From IMG/VR virus record IMGVR_UViG_3300010371_000017, positions 1 to 44,583 of that record: a DNA stretch of 44,583 bases. One strand, 5' to 3'. Of this stretch, positions 6,588 to 43,605 are shown piece after piece. Both the position numbers and the translations under genes were made by a program. The notes under the pieces are model-generated. The model worked only from the letters and a program-made list of their open reading frames with translations, was not told where the DNA came from and did no database searches. Numbering within the stretch: the first letter of the stretch is position 1; each line of letters opens with the position of its first letter. Origin of the DNA: a virus. Its lineage: Duplodnaviria; Caudoviricetes.

Positions 6588-7163
6588 ATGACAATACTAG
6601 TTAAGTTTGGTGGGCTCGACGTTGCAAATCGTGTCGATAATATGGCCCTATGTGTACTCAAACTAGAGAATGGTATATTTGAAGAGATAGGCAATAAGAC
6701 CTGGCCACATGTGGATTACAATGATATAGCAGAAGACTTGCTAAAGATCCAACGACATGAACGTATGAACGCAATAGGTTTTGATAGGCTAGGCTCAGGT
6801 GAGGTAGTCAAGATGTTCTCAAGAGAATTACCACTAGTACCTATAGTATCATCCATGCAGAACAAACAAGACATGATAGGCCTAGTAAAGGGGTTATTCA
6901 ACAAGAAGAAACTCATAATTCATACACCCAGGCTATACCAGGAGATAATGGAGCAGGAGAAGGTAATTACAGAGGCAGGTAATATCACATATAGACATCC
7001 AAGTGGATTCCATGATGATAGGTTTTGGGCCATGTGTTATGCAGTCAAAGTGGCCAGTAGGTATATCCATAACTTCCCAAGGCCCATGATGGTAGTATCT
7101 AAAAAGCCTCAGACAGAAAGAGATATAGAGAAGCAGTTGGAAAAGGATATGAAGGATATATGA
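6588..7163 (+). CDS. terL: Terminase large subunit, stand-alone RNase H-like nuclease domain
   Basis: GGLDVA..D, GFDRLGSG, KQDMI..VK..F and HDDRFWAMCYA match the TerL C-terminal nuclease; no ATPase domain; lies just upstream of portal. Confidence 0.85.
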   Translation: MTILVKFGGLDVANRVDNMALCVLKLENGIFEEIGNKTWPHVDYNDIAEDLLKIQRHERMNAIGFDRLGSGEVVKMFSRELPLVPIVSSMQNKQDMIGLVKGLFNKKKLIIHTPRLYQEIMEQEKVITEAGNITYRHPSGFHDDRFWAMCYAVKVASRYIHNFPRPMMVVSKKPQTERDIEKQLEKDMKDI

Positions 7164-7345: not shown

Positions 7346-7631
7346 TTATCATGTAAGATACTACAATTCCTGGAAGAAGATGATGTTACTTTTAGTGGCA
7401 CTTAACATGATATTAGAAGGCTATATCTATGGCCCTGGCCAATACTAAAACATGTCTCAAATAGATACATGGAAATGGACTGATCTCATATTTTGTGAAT
7501 GTGGGTATCAAGGCCCATTTGGACAACATCAACTAGACCTGGATAAAGGTCTAGTTGCAACAAATGTAGAACATGCTGTACAATTACAGTAGTTCACAAC
7601 CTTTTTATTCTTCTTATTTCTATTACTTAGT

Positions 7632-7732
7632 ACGCCCACCCTTTGTCGAGAGGTGGTATGGAATAGGGAGTGCCGAGACTCAAAGACTCCAAGTCTTACC
7701 CTGGACAGTACACTCCAGGGAAGGCGATTTTT
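7632..7732 (+). ncRNA. Putative structured ncRNA unit 0 (two hairpins plus H-type pseudoknot)
   Basis: About 56% GC by hand count. Pairings: CGCC/GGCG ends, CCACC/GGTGG, GGAGT(7667-71)/ACTCC(7686-90) crossed by GAGACT(7675-80)/AGTCTT(7692-97), CCCTGGA/TCCAGGG. T-rich element upstream and T-tract downstream. Confidence 0.55.
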
Positions 7733-7753
7733 ACTACTATTACTAGGGTTAAA

Positions 7754-7787
7754 CATAACATAGTTGTTATATAACATACCTGTTATG
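7754..7787. promoter_or_regulatory. Tandem dyad operator overlapping a TATA box
   Basis: ATAACA-N4-TGTTAT twice in tandem (7755-7770, 7771-7786); the junction spells TTATATAA, 20 nt before the ATG at 7795. Confidence 0.55.
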
Positions 7788-7794
7788 ATGTTGT

Positions 7795-7911
7795 ATGAAT
7801 GGTAGAATATTTCCATTTTATGTTGGCCCTGCAAAATATGATATACCTGCAGGGATTGATATAGAACAAAGACTAACTAGACTGTACAGCCAACAACTTC
7901 CTACAGTCTAA
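7795..7911 (+). CDS. 38-aa microprotein MNGRIFPFYVGPAKYDIPAGIDIEQRLTRLYSQQLPTV
   Basis: Below the track cutoff; TATA box upstream and T-tract after the stop. Confidence 0.45.
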   Translation: MNGRIFPFYVGPAKYDIPAGIDIEQRLTRLYSQQLPTV

Positions 7912-7958
7912 CTCTTTTTATTTAATCTTTAATAACGTAGCCAAGGCTATACTATGTT

Positions 7959-9593
7959 ATGGGCCAAGTCAAAACTCGCAAGGAAAGAGCCTCTAAACCT
8001 GTTTTAATTGCCGATAATGGTCAAAAACTAGCAAAAAAGGATTATGCAACACCCAAGTTCGCAGTATCCACTCGTAGCACTACTCGTAAATATGTCACGA
8101 ACAACTGGCGTAAGATGGATGGCCAATCAATGGATTTTCAAGGTATTCAAGTATTTGCTCCAGTAGATCCATATACATACTCTGAAAGAAAAGACTTTAG
8201 AAGTGCTATGGATAATTCATACGTCTATAGAGGATGTCGTATCCACACTACCATGGTAGCAGGTCAGGGATATACTACAAGTGTAGTACCACGTAAAGAA
8301 GAAGAACTACCTGAAGACCAGGAAGAGATGTGGGCCCAATCTACTAGACTACCTGTACCATATTGGGATGATAAAGAATTTACTCCAGAGCAAATCAAGG
8401 ACTGGGTAGACAAACTCTGTATGGATTTAGACTTGCAGAATAATGTTTTCAATGCATATTTCCTGGCCCTGGAACAAGGAAGATGTGTACTTGCTATCAC
8501 ACCATTGGATAAAGATCCAGACAAAACAAAAACAGTAAGATGGCAAATCCCAAGAGGTATCAGACTAATCAGGCCAGAGTTTACCATTAGGCCACTAATT
8601 GATGATAATACTGCAGAACTAAAAGGATGTCAAGTAGTTGGGGCCTATACTGAAGAAAACAGTTCAGCAATAGACGCAGAACGTATGTTGTATATCATGC
8701 ATGGATTCAACAATGAATTATTCTCTGATTACTATGGAGATTCCAAAGTGGCCAGAATATCAGATATTGCCAACACACTAAACGTTATACTCAATCAGGA
8801 TTATCCCAATACGGCCAAGTCAGCATGGTACAAACCACCAATTTATTCAGTACCAATACCACCACAAGAATTTGGTAATGAACAATCAATACTAACACAA
8901 TTTGCAAACCAGGCCAATGAATCAGAAGGTAGAGCAGTTGCAGTCACTGGCCCAAGTAACAAGGATGAAGTAGGTATCACTGTACTATCAGGTGATAACG
9001 CACATGCAGATGTAGGTGGCCTTGAAACAATTAGAACAGGCCTGATTAAATCTATAATCACAGCCTTTGGTATTCCAGGCTTTATGTTATCAGAAGGAGA
9101 TATTGGCTCATTATCAGGTAACTCAAACATAGAAGAGATTGATATGTACATCAATACAGAAATCAGGCCAGAGAGAATCATACTAGAACGTGTAATAGAA
9201 TCACAACTCTATGATAGAATACTACAGATATTATTCCAGGTAGATGATACAAACAAACTACCAATTAAAATCAAACACAAGTTCAACAAGCCTAAATTGT
9301 TTACCATGATTGATCCTGCACTATACAATGAGATGAAGGATATGGTAGCAACAGGCATAATAGATGAAAGTGGTATGAGAGAGTTCTTGGGTGTAGAAGA
9401 ACTTAACAAGGATACACTATCAAAGGGCCAGGATACAGATCCAAACTTGAACAGATGGAGACCTGACTGGCAATCCCCAGTACAAATTAACATGTGGCCA
9501 ACTAAGGATGGACAACTATCTACTACAGTATCACCCTGGGGTAAATTACCTAAACCTGAACCACAAAAGACTGCAAGGAGTAAGAAGAAGTAA
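7959..9593 (+). CDS. Portal protein
   Basis: 544 aa, follows the TerL nuclease; I..AFGIPGFML.....GN......YI..EIRP....LE pattern of the portal core. Confidence 0.82.
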   Translation: MGQVKTRKERASKPVLIADNGQKLAKKDYATPKFAVSTRSTTRKYVTNNWRKMDGQSMDFQGIQVFAPVDPYTYSERKDFRSAMDNSYVYRGCRIHTTMVAGQGYTTSVVPRKEEELPEDQEEMWAQSTRLPVPYWDDKEFTPEQIKDWVDKLCMDLDLQNNVFNAYFLALEQGRCVLAITPLDKDPDKTKTVRWQIPRGIRLIRPEFTIRPLIDDNTAELKGCQVVGAYTEENSSAIDAERMLYIMHGFNNELFSDYYGDSKVARISDIANTLNVILNQDYPNTAKSAWYKPPIYSVPIPPQEFGNEQSILTQFANQANESEGRAVAVTGPSNKDEVGITVLSGDNAHADVGGLETIRTGLIKSIITAFGIPGFMLSEGDIGSLSGNSNIEEIDMYINTEIRPERIILERVIESQLYDRILQILFQVDDTNKLPIKIKHKFNKPKLFTMIDPALYNEMKDMVATGIIDESGMREFLGVEELNKDTLSKGQDTDPNLNRWRPDWQSPVQINMWPTKDGQLSTTVSPWGKLPKPEPQKTARSKKK

Positions 9594-9856
9594 TGGATAC
9601 TGATATAGCCTTACTACTACAGGCCATAAACAAGCAACAGGATGATATTAAGTATATTCGTGACAAGGTAGATGTTCAAGGTGACAAGATAAATGATTTA
9701 TGCAATAGACAGGTAATGACTGAACAAGAAGTAAAGTCAGAAATATCCACAAGAGTAAAGAACGAAACTAGCAAGTACAAGTTTATCACCATAGTATTTT
9801 CAGGCCTTGGTGGTGTAGTGTCTGCAGTTGCTACACTAAAGAGTATGTGGCATTAA
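9593..9856 (+). CDS. Coiled-coil protein with C-terminal TM helix (XhlA/holin-like architecture)
   Basis: Heptad-rich N-terminus, hydrophobic C-terminus. Confidence 0.55.
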   Translation: MDTDIALLLQAINKQQDDIKYIRDKVDVQGDKINDLCNRQVMTEQEVKSEISTRVKNETSKYKFITIVFSGLGGVVSAVATLKSMWH

Positions 9857-9885
9857 GTTAATATTCTACCAAAACAATTACAATA

Positions 9886-10045
9886 TAGGTTAGGGGCAAT
9901 CGTAGCGATATTACCGTCTCAGGACATGGTAAGTGCCGTCTATTCCGAACTAAAGCCCAAATGGTGAACCTGCCTGGCCAAGTGTTAGGCCCTACAAGAG
10001 GAATAGGTGATTTATCATCTATTCTGAACGCACCACTATCTTTTT
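9886..10045 (+). ncRNA. Putative structured ncRNA unit A
   Basis: Stems TTACCGT/ATGGTAA, GCCTGGC/GTTAGGC, GAATAGGTGA/TCATCTATTC, TGGTG/CACCA; ends in a T-tract; no credible ORF. Confidence 0.55.
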
Positions 10046-10068
10046 ATTTAACTATAACTAATTACTAT

Positions 10069-10148
10069 CAAGCGATTTAGGGGTGTAACGCTTCGAGGCC
10101 TCACAACCTAGGATAAGTGACAAGCCATAACCCCTCGACATCTTTTTA
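10069..10148 (+). ncRNA. Putative structured ncRNA unit B
   Basis: AAGCG/CGCTT hairpin whose loop AGGGGT is complementary to ACCCCT (10130-35); competing TCGAGG/CCTCGA; TCAC/GTGA; T-tract end. Confidence 0.5.
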
Positions 10149-10171
10149 TTCTAGTCTATCGTAATACATTA

Positions 10172-10464
10172 TGCTAAGGCCACTATTTGGACTGACTCTG
10201 AATAGTTTAGTAATTGGGCGTAGTGAATATCAACCAATGGCCAAAAGAGGATTCACAGCCTGTCCATAGGTCAGAATGGAAAATGGTCATTTGCTCAAAT
10301 CTCTTGGCCTGTCGTCTCAGAACGACCAATAAGAGGTGGTGACTCTGCAACATGCGGAGCCCACTGTCGAGGCATTTAATAGGTTGGTGGTACAATCCAA
10401 TACCTCATAGACCTCACGCTTCGCATAGGAGTGTCAGGCAGAGGAAAAAACCACAATCTTTTTT
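10172..10464 (+). ncRNA. Putative large (about 290 nt) multi-domain ncRNA unit C
   Basis: Many stems (CTATTTGGA/TCTGAATAG, ATTGG/CCAAT, TCCAT/ATGGA, GTCGT/ACGAC, CTCTGCA/TGCGGAG, ACGCTTC/GGAGTGT) plus two loop-mediated pairings; T-tract end. Confidence 0.6.
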
Positions 10465-10489
10465 AATCAGGCCTTTGTATACTACTTTG

Positions 10490-10638
10490 ATGGGGCTATC
10501 ATACCATCTCACCTCACATACTGTTTTGGTGTGATAGTCCTCACAACAACGAGGGAAAGCGTTGTACTTAGCAAGACTGGGCCGTTTCAGTTGGTAGGTG
10601 TCTCAAGCCCTGGCAACTGAAGGGCCAATACTTTTTTA
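10490..10638 (+). ncRNA. Putative structured ncRNA unit D (three hairpins)
   Basis: 15-bp helix 10492-10506/10527-10541 with G-U pairs; ACAACG/CGTTGT; long stem TTCAGTTG/CAACTGAA; T-tract end. Confidence 0.6.
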
Positions 10639-10661
10639 TTATAGTTGTTTGTAGAACTATT

Positions 10662-10797
10662 GCTCTACTCCGTACCCTAGAGGCTACTGGAAATCGAGGA
10701 CACGAAAAACCCTGAGCCAGTGAATTAGACCAAATGAGAAATTACAGTGGTACTCTAGGCCAATTAGAGTATTATCAGAAGGTTAATTAGAGGGTAC
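10662..10797 (+). ncRNA. Putative structured ncRNA unit E or structured 5' leader
   Basis: CCTAGAG/CTCTAGG, ACTGG/CCAGT, and an alternative GTACCCT/AGGGTAC; follows a TTTTTTATTATA element. Confidence 0.4.
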
Positions 10798-10812
10798 TAA
10801 TCAGTCAAGTCA

Positions 10813-11178
10813 ATGGTGGATAACTTCATCCTCTTTATTCTGGCCTCTGTAGTTGCAGGGGAAACATGGAATAACGCAGGTTATTTCAGCGACTGGATAA
10901 AGAATAGGAATGATCCAAATTGGAAAGGCTTTGATGTTAAAGCCCTGAGAAATGACCTTTTGTTAGGTCTCATCTTGGGCCTGGGTATCATAGTCTATTC
11001 CTCAATAGTAGCAGGTACAAGTAATGCTATCACCATTCCACAAATCACTACACCACAGATATTCATATCAGTGGTAGCAAGTCTGTTCGGTACAGTAGCA
11101 ATAGTTGATAAATTTATTGTTGGTGGAATTGGTAGAGCAGTAACCCTGCGAAAACCAAAGGCTCCTGGAACAATCTAG
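10813..11178 (+). CDS. Multi-TM membrane protein (holin-like architecture)
   Basis: Two to three hydrophobic helices and a basic C-terminus. Confidence 0.6.
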   Translation: MVDNFILFILASVVAGETWNNAGYFSDWIKNRNDPNWKGFDVKALRNDLLLGLILGLGIIVYSSIVAGTSNAITIPQITTPQIFISVVASLFGTVAIVDKFIVGGIGRAVTLRKPKAPGTI

Positions 11179-11223: not shown

Positions 11224-11796
11224 ATGAAACTTGTATTTTCTGCTATTGTTTTATGTCAGATTCTAATTGTATTGGGTGCTTTACACTCTGCAAGTGCAAA
11301 TCAATTTCCAACATTTGGATTTTCAAACTCTACAAAATATGAGAGTTGTATAGATTACATGCATAATGGAACATCTTGTTTCCAATATGAACAACCATTG
11401 AAATTATCACCAAATCAAACTGCAGGTCTTAATTGGTCTATGGATATTATTGCTCCAAATAACACATGTAATATCAAAGGTACAATCATAGGTTCTACAG
11501 GTGGCTGTACATATTCTTCAATCGTTTTAACTCAAGCAGACTTTGACTTGCTTAAACAAAATCCTTCAGTATTAGCAGTAGTTCGCATACAACAAAGTGG
11601 TATGCCATCACAAGACTATTGCCCAGTTGCATTATGGACTTGGGCCTCACAAGATGATTCATTCAAGGCCAAATACAATGAAACTCTAGTAGTACCACAA
11701 AAATGTCTTAATCCAGTTCCAGAGTTTCCAACTGCTGAAGTGGCCATGATAATTGCATTTATTACGTCATGTGTATTGGTAATGAGATACAAATGA
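11224..11796 (+). CDS. Secreted surface glycoprotein with PEF-CTERM-like archaeosortase signal
   Basis: N-terminal signal peptide; C-terminal VPEFP + TM helix + RYK; six N-x-S/T sequons. Confidence 0.75.
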   Translation: MKLVFSAIVLCQILIVLGALHSASANQFPTFGFSNSTKYESCIDYMHNGTSCFQYEQPLKLSPNQTAGLNWSMDIIAPNNTCNIKGTIIGSTGGCTYSSIVLTQADFDLLKQNPSVLAVVRIQQSGMPSQDYCPVALWTWASQDDSFKAKYNETLVVPQKCLNPVPEFPTAEVAMIIAFITSCVLVMRYK

Positions 11797-18079: not shown

Positions 18080-20049
18080 GTAACCTAGACTTGGAACATC
18101 ACCACTCATTTGAGTTCAAGCCAGTTGGCCAGTTTAGGGGGGCCAGTTTACTTCAAGAACAATCTGCAGACAAGAAATTTGTCAAGTACTTTCTACTTAC
18201 TGCCAAGGATATTAACGGTAATGGATGGGGAGTATCCCAGGATAGTATAGCAAGTAATATCAAAGATTTTATTGGCCAACCACTTGTAGCAACATCCAGA
18301 CAGTTTATTGCAGATTCAGAATATGGTGATACATTTACACACCCATACATACCAACCAATCACATACCTACAATATTTGCTCATCAAAATAAATTCGCTA
18401 TTGGAATCATACGAGATGTAGTAGAAGAACATGGTAATTGGAACGCAATAGCAGAGATATTTCCCAAGTATGCACACATGAAACCACCACCATTTTGTAG
18501 CCCTGGTATATTCCAATTAGATCCAAGAGAGCCAGAAGGAAACATATCAAAATGGAAAGCACTTCATTTAGCAGTATTAGACGCTGAACCTGCATACGGA
18601 GCCCAAATGGCAATTATGAAGGGTTCATGTGTTGGAACACTAAACGAGTGTAAAGTACAATTCAAAGGAGCCAAATTTGAATCATCCAACACAGAACAGA
18701 AAAAAGAAATACAGAGAGAGGAACTTGAAACTATTGATACTGAAGAAGATAAGACCAAGACTGCTAGTGTTGTATGTCCAATAAAACTAGGCCAGAAACT
18801 TAGAAGAGTTGCTTTAATGGGAAGATTTGCTAGTATAGAAGATTTATCAAAAAAAGAAAGATTAGACCTCTCTACAGGAGAATATGGTAAGTACAAAAGA
18901 CATGATCCAGAATTACCATTAAAGAATGAAGTACCATTTGGAAGAGAAAATAGAAGTGTAAAACAGAGGAAGGAAGACACCAAGAATAAGATTATGCAAG
19001 GATTTGAAAGTATAACCAATGATAGTAAAATCAGACCACCCAAACCAACAACAAAAGATAGACAGAGAATAATAACTGCTAAATTTCAATTAATTACAGG
19101 ATTAAAACAAAAACACGCAAAACTAGACATTCCAATAGAACAACCACCCAATGTTAAAATCAATCCAGAACATGGTAAGATAATAGCAGACGCTTATGGT
19201 AAAATGAAGCATGATCCAAGTAATCCAGAAGTAAAACAATCTTATGACGCTTTGATAAAAGAGACTGGCTCTCAATACAAAGACCTACTTGGAAAGGGCC
19301 TGAAGGTATCAAAAATCAAGGGTGAAAACCCATACAAATCATCAAAGGATATGCATAATGACTTGGAACAAAACAATCATTTACACTACTATCCAACCAA
19401 GTCAGGTTTTGGTTCAGAAGGCGAAGAACATCCAGACCACCCAATGTTACAAAAGACAGAGTTCAAGGATGAAGATAATGAGCCAATGTTAGCAAATGAT
19501 GTATTTAGAATAGTCCATGATATTAATGGCCATCATAGGGGTGGTATGTCAGGTTTTGGCCCTAAAGGTGAGCAACAGGCATTTTTAACTCATAGTAAGA
19601 TGTACAGTCCTACTGCAAAGAAGGCCCTGGCAACTGAGACTATGGGCCAGAATAACTTTGTAAACTTTGGCCCAAATGGTGAACATAATAGAAAAGATCC
19701 AAGCCATACCATATACGCAGAACAAAAGGCAGGAATAATGCCTGATGAAATAGTAAATGGTAACTTTCACCAAGATAATCAGGTGAAAAGTAGCAAACAA
19801 GTTATAAATGATAAATTTCAGAGAATAGCCATGACCAATCTTGAATCTGACAAAGATAAAATCTTAGCCAGATATAATTTATCATTAGATAAATACAGAA
19901 AATCTGTAAAAGGTGAACATGAGGCAAAATCATTAAATGATGAGGGTTTTAGAGAAGTCTTTAGAACTGACGCATTGAAACATGGAAACCGATACAAAAA
20001 ACTCACTGGAGAACACCCACCAGGAATAGAAGAAGTACAGAAAAAATGA
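18076..20049 (+). CDS. Putative prohead protease fused to long C-terminal cargo domains
   Basis: N-terminal INGNGW......I..FIGQP....H...IG.I...S......LAVL...PAY fits HK97/herpes-type maturation proteases; located upstream of scaffold and MCP. Confidence 0.6.
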   Translation: MSNLDLEHHHSFEFKPVGQFRGASLLQEQSADKKFVKYFLLTAKDINGNGWGVSQDSIASNIKDFIGQPLVATSRQFIADSEYGDTFTHPYIPTNHIPTIFAHQNKFAIGIIRDVVEEHGNWNAIAEIFPKYAHMKPPPFCSPGIFQLDPREPEGNISKWKALHLAVLDAEPAYGAQMAIMKGSCVGTLNECKVQFKGAKFESSNTEQKKEIQREELETIDTEEDKTKTASVVCPIKLGQKLRRVALMGRFASIEDLSKKERLDLSTGEYGKYKRHDPELPLKNEVPFGRENRSVKQRKEDTKNKIMQGFESITNDSKIRPPKPTTKDRQRIITAKFQLITGLKQKHAKLDIPIEQPPNVKINPEHGKIIADAYGKMKHDPSNPEVKQSYDALIKETGSQYKDLLGKGLKVSKIKGENPYKSSKDMHNDLEQNNHLHYYPTKSGFGSEGEEHPDHPMLQKTEFKDEDNEPMLANDVFRIVHDINGHHRGGMSGFGPKGEQQAFLTHSKMYSPTAKKALATETMGQNNFVNFGPNGEHNRKDPSHTIYAEQKAGIMPDEIVNGNFHQDNQVKSSKQVINDKFQRIAMTNLESDKDKILARYNLSLDKYRKSVKGEHEAKSLNDEGFREVFRTDALKHGNRYKKLTGEHPPGIEEVQKK

Positions 20050-42161: not shown

Positions 42162-42653
42162 ATGGGGAAAACAGGTAAGCCAGATTCTGGAACTCAGTTA
42201 GCAAATCACAAGGCCTGTAAGGAAGCCTTTGAGAAAGGATGGGGTGTACTGTTTGCCTCTAAAATGCTCAAACTAAACAAGAATACAGTATCAGACTACT
42301 ATGATAAACTAAGAACTGACTTTTTACAACATGAGGGTAATAACTTCATCAATCAACAGAAGATGGCCAAGGAGTTTGCCATCAAGGCCCTGGATGATGA
42401 AATATCAGAACTTGATGATCTAATAGATGATAAAGAAAATGGGTTTTACAAGAGATATTTGGATGATAGTGAAAATCCAGCCTGGGGTAGTCTATTAAAA
42501 TCTACTATAGAATTGAGATCAAATCTAAAACAACAGAAATTTGCACTATCAATGGCTCCTACCTTGGATGTGTCAATAGAGACTATCATCATGGAAGCCC
42601 AAGGAGAGAGAACGAGAATTGTCGCAGAATCCAGGACTATCAGTACTCACTAA
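42162..42653 (+). CDS. terS: Terminase small subunit (putative)
   Basis: N-terminal HTH (ASKMLKLNKNTVSDYY), helical oligomerisation region; overlaps the TerL ATPase gene. Confidence 0.65.
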   Translation: MGKTGKPDSGTQLANHKACKEAFEKGWGVLFASKMLKLNKNTVSDYYDKLRTDFLQHEGNNFINQQKMAKEFAIKALDDEISELDDLIDDKENGFYKRYLDDSENPAWGSLLKSTIELRSNLKQQKFALSMAPTLDVSIETIIMEAQGERTRIVAESRTISTH

Positions 42654-43605
42654 GTATAGTTCTCTAGCAGAGAGAATTAAGAAGACTTTACCACCAATAC
42701 AAAGTAGGGATGTTCCAGTCTTTGTTAAAGCAGACTCGTTAAGAAATCTATCAAGAGTTGAGGCTCTAACATACAAGTGGACTGAGATGAACCGTATAAT
42801 TGGTAATCCAATACACCCAGGTACTGGAAAGGTATGTCCAGTAACACCATCTCAGATAGCATATCATAATGTGTGGAATCTAACACATAGAGTAGCATAT
42901 AACAAGTCAAGAAAGAGGGGTGCAACAGAAGCCTCATTAAGAACCGTATTAGAGAACTGTTTTGATAGGTATGTTGGTCATAAAGTCATTATGATCTCAG
43001 GTAACAGACAGAGCCAGGCTGATGACTATTTGACCAGGTTTGATGACTTGCTTTGGGGCCCAAATGATAAAGGATGGACTGACGCTGAAGGCAAACTATG
43101 GAAATATGGAGACTTGGTATCTCAGAAAAGACACGATACCATGAAAATGACATGTGGGGTGGAACTACAAACTATACCTGCTAACGAATATGCAGTTAGA
43201 GGTCTTGAGAATGTCAAATGTGTTTTGTTTATAGAGTGTGCCCACATTGACAGGACTGAAGATAAGAAGGTATATACTGCAACTCACCCACTTGCTTCTA
43301 ATGATGATACAATGGATTTTATCTTGGAGACTACACCAAACGGTAAGCGTGGGTTCTTCTACAATAATTTTATCAATCCAACTACAGAATATTTCAAACT
43401 AGAATACGATTACACTTCTGCAATAGAAGAGGGCCTAATGACTCAGCAGTTCATAGACAAGGAAAAGAACAACCCTGAAATTGACTGGGAACAGGAGTAC
43501 TGTTGTAAATTCACAACATCCAACTCTGCAGTCTTTAAAGAAGGAAGTGTGGTGTATTTGCCTGAACAAGTAACAGATTATTCTGACATACTCAATAGTA
43601 AATAG
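42619..43605 (+). CDS. terL: Terminase large subunit, stand-alone ATPase domain
   Basis: Q motif (TPSQ), Walker A KSRKRGAT, VRG...VLFIECAH Walker B region, ETTPNG..GFFY coupling motif; ends just after QEYCCKF....AVF. Confidence 0.88.
   Translation: MSQNPGLSVLTKYSSLAERIKKTLPPIQSRDVPVFVKADSLRNLSRVEALTYKWTEMNRIIGNPIHPGTGKVCPVTPSQIAYHNVWNLTHRVAYNKSRKRGATEASLRTVLENCFDRYVGHKVIMISGNRQSQADDYLTRFDDLLWGPNDKGWTDAEGKLWKYGDLVSQKRHDTMKMTCGVELQTIPANEYAVRGLENVKCVLFIECAHIDRTEDKKVYTATHPLASNDDTMDFILETTPNGKRGFFYNNFINPTTEYFKLEYDYTSAIEEGLMTQQFIDKEKNNPEIDWEQEYCCKFTTSNSAVFKEGSVVYLPEQVTDYSDILNSK

Follow-up and report, generated by a model that had tools for sequence, protein, structure and literature searches.

The gap at positions 9857-10812 of the archaeal virus sequence analysed here (44,583 nt, the whole of which is referred to as the window) carries five units, U1 to U5, that are very probably functional structured RNAs. 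In close viral relatives these units are reordered, lost, fused or replaced, with breaks at T-tract spacers. An array of five separately punctuated, structured non-coding RNAs had been proposed at this place from the single sequence; the observation is confirmed, and is stronger than first seen because of the cassette shuffling and the covariation described below. As a whole, the best explanation, which we put forward tentatively, would be that shuffled cassettes carry separately transcribed structured RNAs acting in trans as accessory decoys or ligands.

A non-coding slot of variable content

The source of the window is a tailed archaeal virus, encoding RadA, MCM and terminase domains as well as a major capsid protein. 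As the best named relatives of its RadA are from Nitrososphaerota (35-36% identity), these ammonia-oxidising archaea are the likely host; the viruses named for Nitrososphaerota hosts in the accessible part of PMC12451623 are only spindle-shaped ones. The features of the region are listed in Table 1. Pfam and PHROG searches with the 544-aa portal ORF gave no match, nor did a sequence search of the PDB, and its AlphaFold model (pLDDT 32) was too low in confidence to be used. The 121-aa protein encoded beyond the gap is possibly lysis-related, judging from its position and hydrophobicity alone, and family searches placed it in no family.

The gap extends over 956 nt from the stop codon of the 87-aa ORF (9856) to the ATG at 10813, and its only ORFs encode 60 aa (+ strand) and 62 aa (- strand). 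It is the longest gap on the + strand once the non-conserved 60-aa ORF (10352-10534) is disregarded. The array lies downstream of the portal gene as stated in the original prediction, with the 87-aa gene intervening; the accompanying description of the genome as coding from wall to wall did not hold, as + strand ORFs cover 85.6% of the window and 17 gaps measure at least 120 nt. The division into five GC-richer units and AT-rich spacers was borne out: GC content is 0.43-0.51 in the units and 0.13-0.29 in the four internal spacers, for a window value of 0.367. The T-tract elements are indeed present at 10041, 10143, 10459 and 10632, so that 4 of the window's 17 + strand TTTTTA[TA] sites fall within the gap (0.36 expected, P=0.0004). 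The palindrome GGCC occurs more often than expected both in the gap (10 vs 1.9) and, strongly so, in the whole window (182 vs 50), where CG is depleted (424 vs 1494). Protein-level conservation of the short ORFs, which had been named as the alternative, was not found. The ORF starting at ATG 10171 encodes 32 aa in the window and 4 aa in the relatives L003 and L004, that at ATG 10490 (14 aa) has no counterpart in relatives, and the 60-aa ORF crosses a junction missing there; six-frame matches across relatives are short and change frame, and alignments of the units contain frame-breaking indels.

Table 1. Features of the portal region and of the slot (window coordinates)
Feature	Position	Strand	Remarks
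U0, outlying unit	7602..7733	+	box at 7602, cloverleaf-like fold ~7629-7728, T-tract at 7729
Portal protein gene, 544 aa	7959..9593	+	similar in predicted structure to portal families (ESM Atlas, TM 0.52-0.60)
87-aa ORF, conserved left border of slot	9593..9856	+	weak phrog_2990 match, E=0.0009
TTAATAT box, predicted U1 promoter	9858..9864	+	relatives: TTTTTAT at equal distance
U1, 152 nt	9885..10036	+	homologues in L001, L003
Motif common to U1 and U3 (AAATGGT ... CCT-hairpin-AAGAGG), U1 copy	9959..10001	+	
Spacer, T-tract/TATA-like box at 10041	10037..10066	+	predicted U1 terminator and U2 promoter
U2, 73 nt	10067..10139	+	L004 homologue, 90% identical
Spacer, box at 10143	10140..10170	+	first 11 nt identical to spacer at 10038 (repeat D1)
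U3, 285 nt	10171..10455	+	homologues in L003, L004
Spacer, box at 10459	10456..10483	+	GGCCTTT(G/C)TATA part precedes different units in relatives
U4, 145 nt	10484..10628	+	variable 5' hairpin and constant 3' domain 10547-10626
Spacer, box at 10632	10629..10658	+	
U5, ~120 nt	10659..10778	+	weakest supported unit
Predicted promoter/leader of 121-aa gene, right border of slot	10779..10812	+	conserved 35 nt, 86% identical in L001, L003, L004
121-aa hydrophobic protein gene	10813..11178	+	83-84% identical in relatives

Five loci encode portals 88-91% identical to that of the window, and three of them (L001, L003 and L004) include the slot, so four genomes could be compared. In all four the slot is non-coding (600-850 nt in the relatives) and its content differs. 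The order is U1-U2-U3-U4-U5 in the window, U3-U1-C-U4 in L003 (C being a unit without counterpart in the window), U1-C-U4 followed by a short remnant in L001, and, in L004, U3 followed by a fusion of U2 with the U4 3' half and then a short remnant. Contigs from runs X3 and X4, at a depth under 3, each join 10035 to 10143 at the T-tract, hence lacking U2; this joint lies 5 nt from where a clean repeat-to-repeat deletion would place it, and the longer X4 contig has the L003-type unit order. The comparison stays at four genomes because further scans yielded only copies of known cassettes: a metagenome scan for homologues returned four loci, each of which duplicates one of the four known cassettes, and pattern scans returned the known loci plus chance matches in coding DNA of other phages (9/11 and 2/5). 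A search with the gap DNA gave only chance matches, in phages and in 1 of 401 Nitrososphaeria-class genomes (a coding region there), and the portal was not found in genome_contigs, INPHARED or the same number of Nitrososphaeria-class genomes.

A second slot lies upstream of the portal gene. It contains U0 in the window and a different unit of ~195 nt, behind a near-identical promoter, in L001 (2366-2590), L002 (3041-3265) and L004 (2376-2600); no unit was found there in L003 and L005. Over 7441-7920, each of the four 120-nt windows has a folding z-score below -2.8. In distant relatives (portals 57-60% identical) the downstream slot holds small ORFs and another conserved non-coding motif of 60-110 nt, seen at L006 7400-7460 and L013 5998-6058 and in the same slot of L038, L043, L045, L047, L049, L009, L010, L012 and L017. 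This motif is present in L013 and missing in the similar L011, the difference lying at a T-tract; Rfam gave no match in those scanned, and RNAalifold predicted only 4 pairs. Further swapped or GC-richer, non-coding-looking inserts were noticed in distant-relative slots, at L017 1870-2076 compared with L012 3193-3286, and at L043 4480-4730 and L046 6000-6110.

Boundaries and structure of the units

Archaeal terminators are oligo-T tracts, and archaeal TATA boxes lie ~25 nt upstream of the start. In the window and its relatives, the distance from the start of a TATA-like box to the unit is 25-28 nt in all 14 cases, the unit start being fixed by homology in 10 of them and set by the spacing itself in the other 4. 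Elsewhere, six more TTTTTA[TA] sites are followed by an ORF start at a distance of 25-50 nt; we saw no clear purine-rich BRE 5' of the boxes. The idea that every spacer is a combined terminator and promoter agrees with the fixed TATA-like spacing and needs amending in one respect: promoter and T-tract are separable, because U1 in the window has its TTAATAT box at the usual distance without a T-tract, and U4 in L001 and L003 has a box without a long T-run. U5 lacks a T-tract at its 3' end; it may run into the next gene and may be the leader of the 121-aa gene. It is probable that the host RNA polymerase would use the box of each unit to transcribe it and would terminate at the next T-tract, each spacer ending one RNA and starting the next.

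The units had all been described as highly structured, a statement that folding energy supports for U3 to U5 (depending on the boundaries for U5) and covariation for U1; U1 and U2 give no energy signal, and covariation in U2 is weak. On the + strand, z-scores were -0.2/-0.55 for U1, 0.0 for U2, -2.1 for U3, -4.3/-5.1 for U4 and, depending on the boundary, -0.7 or -2.0 for U5, i.e., clear for U4, modest for U3 and U5 and nil for U1 and U2. Energy alone proves little, as 36 of 371 120-nt windows genome-wide reach z<-2. Covariation was therefore assessed by a blind test on uncurated MAFFT alignments, in which helices of at least 4 pairs, kept in all rows and changed on both sides, were compared with column shuffles. 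U1 passed, with 18 of 46 variable columns (shuffles 4.0+-3.1, reached by 0/150), and so did U3, with 21 of 60 (8.2+-3.4, 0/100), a count in which several of the ten helices are mutually incompatible and likely due to chance. U2 (3/7, 15/300 shuffles), C (2/6, 44/200), the 3' domain of U4 (0/17) and U0b (2/14, 14/60) did not pass alone. Five coding controls failed, their values being reached by 100, 20, 8, 23 and 100 of 100 shuffles. The named U1 structure retains 28 of 28 pairs, 7 of them double-changed (0/500 shuffles; slid controls 31-46% paired), and RNAalifold gave 9 of 60 U3 pairs with a double change. In the hand-picked helices, a hand count of pair columns gave 111 unchanged, 20 double, 5 single and 1 broken. 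That the pairs work on the + strand with G-U, as originally noted, was upheld: ten hand-picked helices contain 14 G-U pairs and no A-C, which indicates RNA on the + strand. In U2, U3 and C, compensatory changes are also seen in crossing helices. As two of the three rows in each of these alignments, drawn from four genomes only, are close, most changes fall on one branch. Covariation in homologues is thus found for U1 and U3, predicted pseudoknots included, weakly for U2, and without any double change for the U4 3' domain.

In U1, the 5' domain is closed by 9894-9897/9955-9958 with two compensatory changes, and this helix is crossed by a predicted invariant helix, 9890-9893/9950-9953; a multi-branch 3' domain is closed by 9962-9965/10032-10035. 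The motif common to U1 and U3 is present in 6 of 6 such units of the four genomes, absent elsewhere in the window and reached by 0 of 20000 shuffles, with a pattern drawn up post hoc, after the data were seen; the U1 model fails to detect U3. The units are not all unrelated, contrary to the original prediction, since U1 and U3 have this 3' motif in common and in L004 U2 is joined with the U4 3' half into a single unit. U2 is absent from L001, L003 and the contigs of X3 and X4. Its predicted pseudoknot, 10079-10084/10130-10135, has one compensatory change and surrounds a stem with a palindromic loop (10107-10112), CCTAGG in the window and CCATGG in L004, with a self-pairing energy of ~-10 kcal/mol in both forms.

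U3 begins with an ATG in 3 of 3 genomes. It comprises a bulged 5' hairpin and a hairpin, P2, with 3 compensatory changes; pseudoknots are predicted at 10178-10181/10239-10242 and 10263-10267/10276-10280, its copy of the common motif spans 10281-10336, a T-loop-like heptaloop (10293-10301) is found in 3 of 3 copies, and the 3' part is variable. The stems of U4 are invariant, with indels in the loops and no double changes. Its 3' domain is the only module in 4 of 4 genomes; the corresponding model, R2, recovers all four and matched no distant relative among 34 sources. U5 has no clear homologue, merely a 13-nt likeness to unit C of L001 and L003, and was rejected as a homologue of C on account of poor alignment; it is unchanged in an identical 209-nt contig of run X2. 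Unit C (L003 7409-7524, L001 5085-5199) has three helices and a crossing helix of 7-9 pairs with one compensatory change. We also noticed the hexamer GTCTCA in hairpin loops of U1, U3 and U4 (9916, 10314 and 10600), which account for 3 of the window's 7 copies (0.15 expected); the U4 loop of L003 has the reverse complement, and the hexamer is otherwise not conserved.

Comparison with known RNAs and accessory cassettes

The units fit no catalogued RNA family, in agreement with the first reading, which had recognised no tRNA or ribozyme. Rfam 15 gave 0 matches at the gathering threshold in the window (one match in the gap had E 0.62) and none in the gaps of 16 related loci, and ARAGORN found 0 tRNAs or tmRNAs in the window. 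No Rfam ribozyme matched the gap at E<=10, and the core motifs of hammerhead, hairpin, pistol, hatchet and twister-sister ribozymes are absent from the units; a twister-loop likeness at 10600 occurs in only 2 of 4 genomes, and an HDV-loop likeness is likewise not conserved in relatives. No gap contains the C box RUGAUGA of archaeal C/D box guide RNAs, and an sR35 match in L003 was dismissed as lying in coding DNA. A Racr or CRISPR-repeat mimic was rejected: the CRISPR-DR36 match reached 17 bits of the 38 needed, lies on the - strand, and its end is altered in all three relatives. No host RNA mimicked by the units was found in 401 genomes searched with DNA and 151 searched with models R1 and R2 (0 each, no positive control). 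Among possible antisense targets within the window, the longest complementary matches measure 11-16 nt and do not convince; two sense matches, at 19624 and 19670, were set aside, being inside a real ORF. The accessible part of PMC10690425, a study of viral candidate RNAs from IMG/VR, gave no match to contig identifiers or motifs; the units could be among its 10,006 unnamed candidates. Our literature search found no description of such a locus or cassette.

Several known systems resemble the slot in part. Adenovirus VA RNAs, EBV EBERs and the herpesvirus HSUR and TMER clusters are tandem, separately promoted, oligo-T-ended structured viral RNAs, and the prohead RNA (pRNA) of phi29 is a single, essential and constant RNA tied to the portal, with loop-loop pairing. 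The units would likewise be tandem structured RNAs, with predicted promoters and oligo-T ends; however, the former RNAs belong to eukaryotic viruses and form fixed gene sets rather than shuffled cassettes, and they are not expected to be related to the units in sequence. The units would share with pRNA the link to the portal and loop-loop pairing, whereas their set varies between near relatives. The PeSL cassettes of T4-like phages, as far as described in PMC2839356 and PMC4122927, are small accessory modules bounded by composite terminator/promoter spacers; as in the slot, modules are gained, lost and replaced, and the breakpoints lie at the spacers. In contrast, their cargo consists of ORFans, where the slot has structured non-coding sequence with no conserved ORF, and their spacers combine a sigma-70 promoter with a stem-loop terminator, where ours are archaeal-type TATA/T-tract spacers of ~30 nt (sigma-70-like sites 3 vs 2.3 by chance; stem-loop terminators 0). 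GOLLD, ROOL and OLE RNAs, in what is available of 10.1101/2024.12.08.627333, are similarly virus-borne and pseudoknotted, with a palindromic loop kept by covariation, as in U2; but they measure several hundred nt as compared with 73-285 nt, and our units match no family model and lie as several different folds side by side, with no tRNA island, in a virus of an archaeal host. Pseudo-ToxI and RNA anti-CRISPRs are small viral RNAs used as accessory counter-defence tools (parts of PMC13670838 and PMC10651486); they mimic a known host RNA or repeat, while the units lack any repeat structure, and the searches gave no host RNA resembling them. Both shuffled accessory cassettes and structured RNAs of viruses are already known, each on its own, and their combination here has a real chance of being a new category.

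Possible function and alternative explanations

It is characteristic of arms-race loci that small accessory modules turn over fast next to conserved morphogenesis genes. In the mechanism that we propose, the five non-coding modules of the gap would form a cassette whose members change order and come and go between closely related viruses, and the RNAs would fold compactly, partly as pseudoknots, and act in trans. By analogy with PeSL cassettes, exchange by recombination between the similar promoter/terminator spacers appears fairly likely. As the modules are dispensable and turn over fast beside conserved head genes, they are suggested to be host-interaction tools, and would serve as accessory decoys or ligands for host factors; a counter-defence or host-takeover role through binding of host proteins or signals could plausibly follow. 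A host RNA that such decoys could mimic was not found in the genomes searched; phage RNA decoys such as pseudo-ToxI and Racr are known (PMC13670838, in part).

That the units are virion, packaging or scaffold RNAs, multimerising like pRNA or OLE/ROOL/GOLLD and expressed with the head genes, is unlikely. Slots on both sides of the portal gene and the presence of the U4 3' domain in 4 of 4 genomes would suit a packaging RNA, and the U2 palindrome, surviving a double change with its self-pairing intact, would suit a scaffold, since a palindromic loop kept through covariation is a criterion for intermolecular kissing (10.1101/2024.12.08.627333, in part). However, all other units are missing from at least one close relative, the U1 and U4 3' models found no homologue in the relatives searched with 57-60% portals, and the palindrome has changed only once, in a comparison of two sequences. 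The compact multi-pseudoknot folds and the long invariant single-stranded tracts in U1 and U3 recall ribozymes, and the cassette mobility recalls selfish RNA modules spreading between spacers with no benefit to the virus. We consider this rather unlikely: neither the Rfam ribozyme search nor the known core motifs gave a match, the loop likenesses are not conserved, a promoter and terminator for each unit would make self-cleavage unnecessary, and no mobility enzyme adjoins the slot.

Cis-acting, riboswitch-like leaders or attenuators could instead time the downstream membrane and lysis genes from one long late transcript, with T-tracts as attenuation points. U5 without a 3' T-tract next to the following gene, alternative pairings in U2 and U3, and the constant U4 3' domain, which in every genome lies at the downstream end or close to it, are in line with this; yet the downstream gene is preceded by a conserved promoter-like stretch of its own, the units are not bound to one order, an isolated unit of a similar kind, with box and T-tract, is located upstream of the portal gene, and a box precedes every unit at a fixed distance, so that such leaders seem improbable. 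The enrichment of GGCC in gap and window would fit DNA-level elements (hairpins, protein-binding, packaging or replication sites) rather than RNAs, a possibility made quite improbable by the G-U but not A-C pairs on one strand, the long-range crossing helices with compensatory changes and the TATA-like spacing. As for small peptides or decayed genes, to which the ATG at the start of U3 and the 60-62 aa ORFs of the gap might point, they are largely refuted by the shifting frames, the frame-breaking indels and the lack of conservation of the ORFs at 10171 and 10490 and of the 60-aa ORF.

With accessory, separately transcribed RNAs as the preferred reading, the slot bears on a field in which hardly anything is known of the structured non-coding RNAs that archaeal tailed viruses encode, and in which the accessory islands of prokaryotic viruses are read as protein islands. 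If such a hypervariable slot holds several new RNA folds, it would be a source of candidate ribozymes, aptamers or decoys and evidence that RNA genes can be exchanged in cassette form; the units are short, directly testable molecules, and the likely hosts, as ammonia oxidisers, are central to the nitrogen cycle. A bolder extension, possible and on the doubtful side, is an exchangeable library of RNA-only effectors, with at least 7-9 unrelated new folds (counted over U0-U5, C, U0b and the motif of distant relatives) in promoter-RNA-terminator cassettes swapped by recombination, some of them acting in archaea as aptamers, ribozymes or kissing-loop multimers. If true, it would be the RNA counterpart of anti-defence protein islands.

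Three observations concern genes outside the slot. The 190-aa protein encoded at 11224-11796 has a C-terminus composed of PEFP, a hydrophobic segment and basic residues, which we take to resemble the thaumarchaeal PEFG-CTERM sorting signal (no NCBIfam match), and is followed by a papain-family protease gene. In L003, a 202-aa ORF (9564-10172) with homing-endonuclease-like repeats, missing in the window, is inserted 3' of the protease gene. The nuclease (6588-7163) and ATPase (42619-43605) domains of the terminase are encoded by separate ORFs, and the ~eight kb that part these ORFs across the contig ends hold other genes (WbqC, PIG-L, glycosyltransferase).
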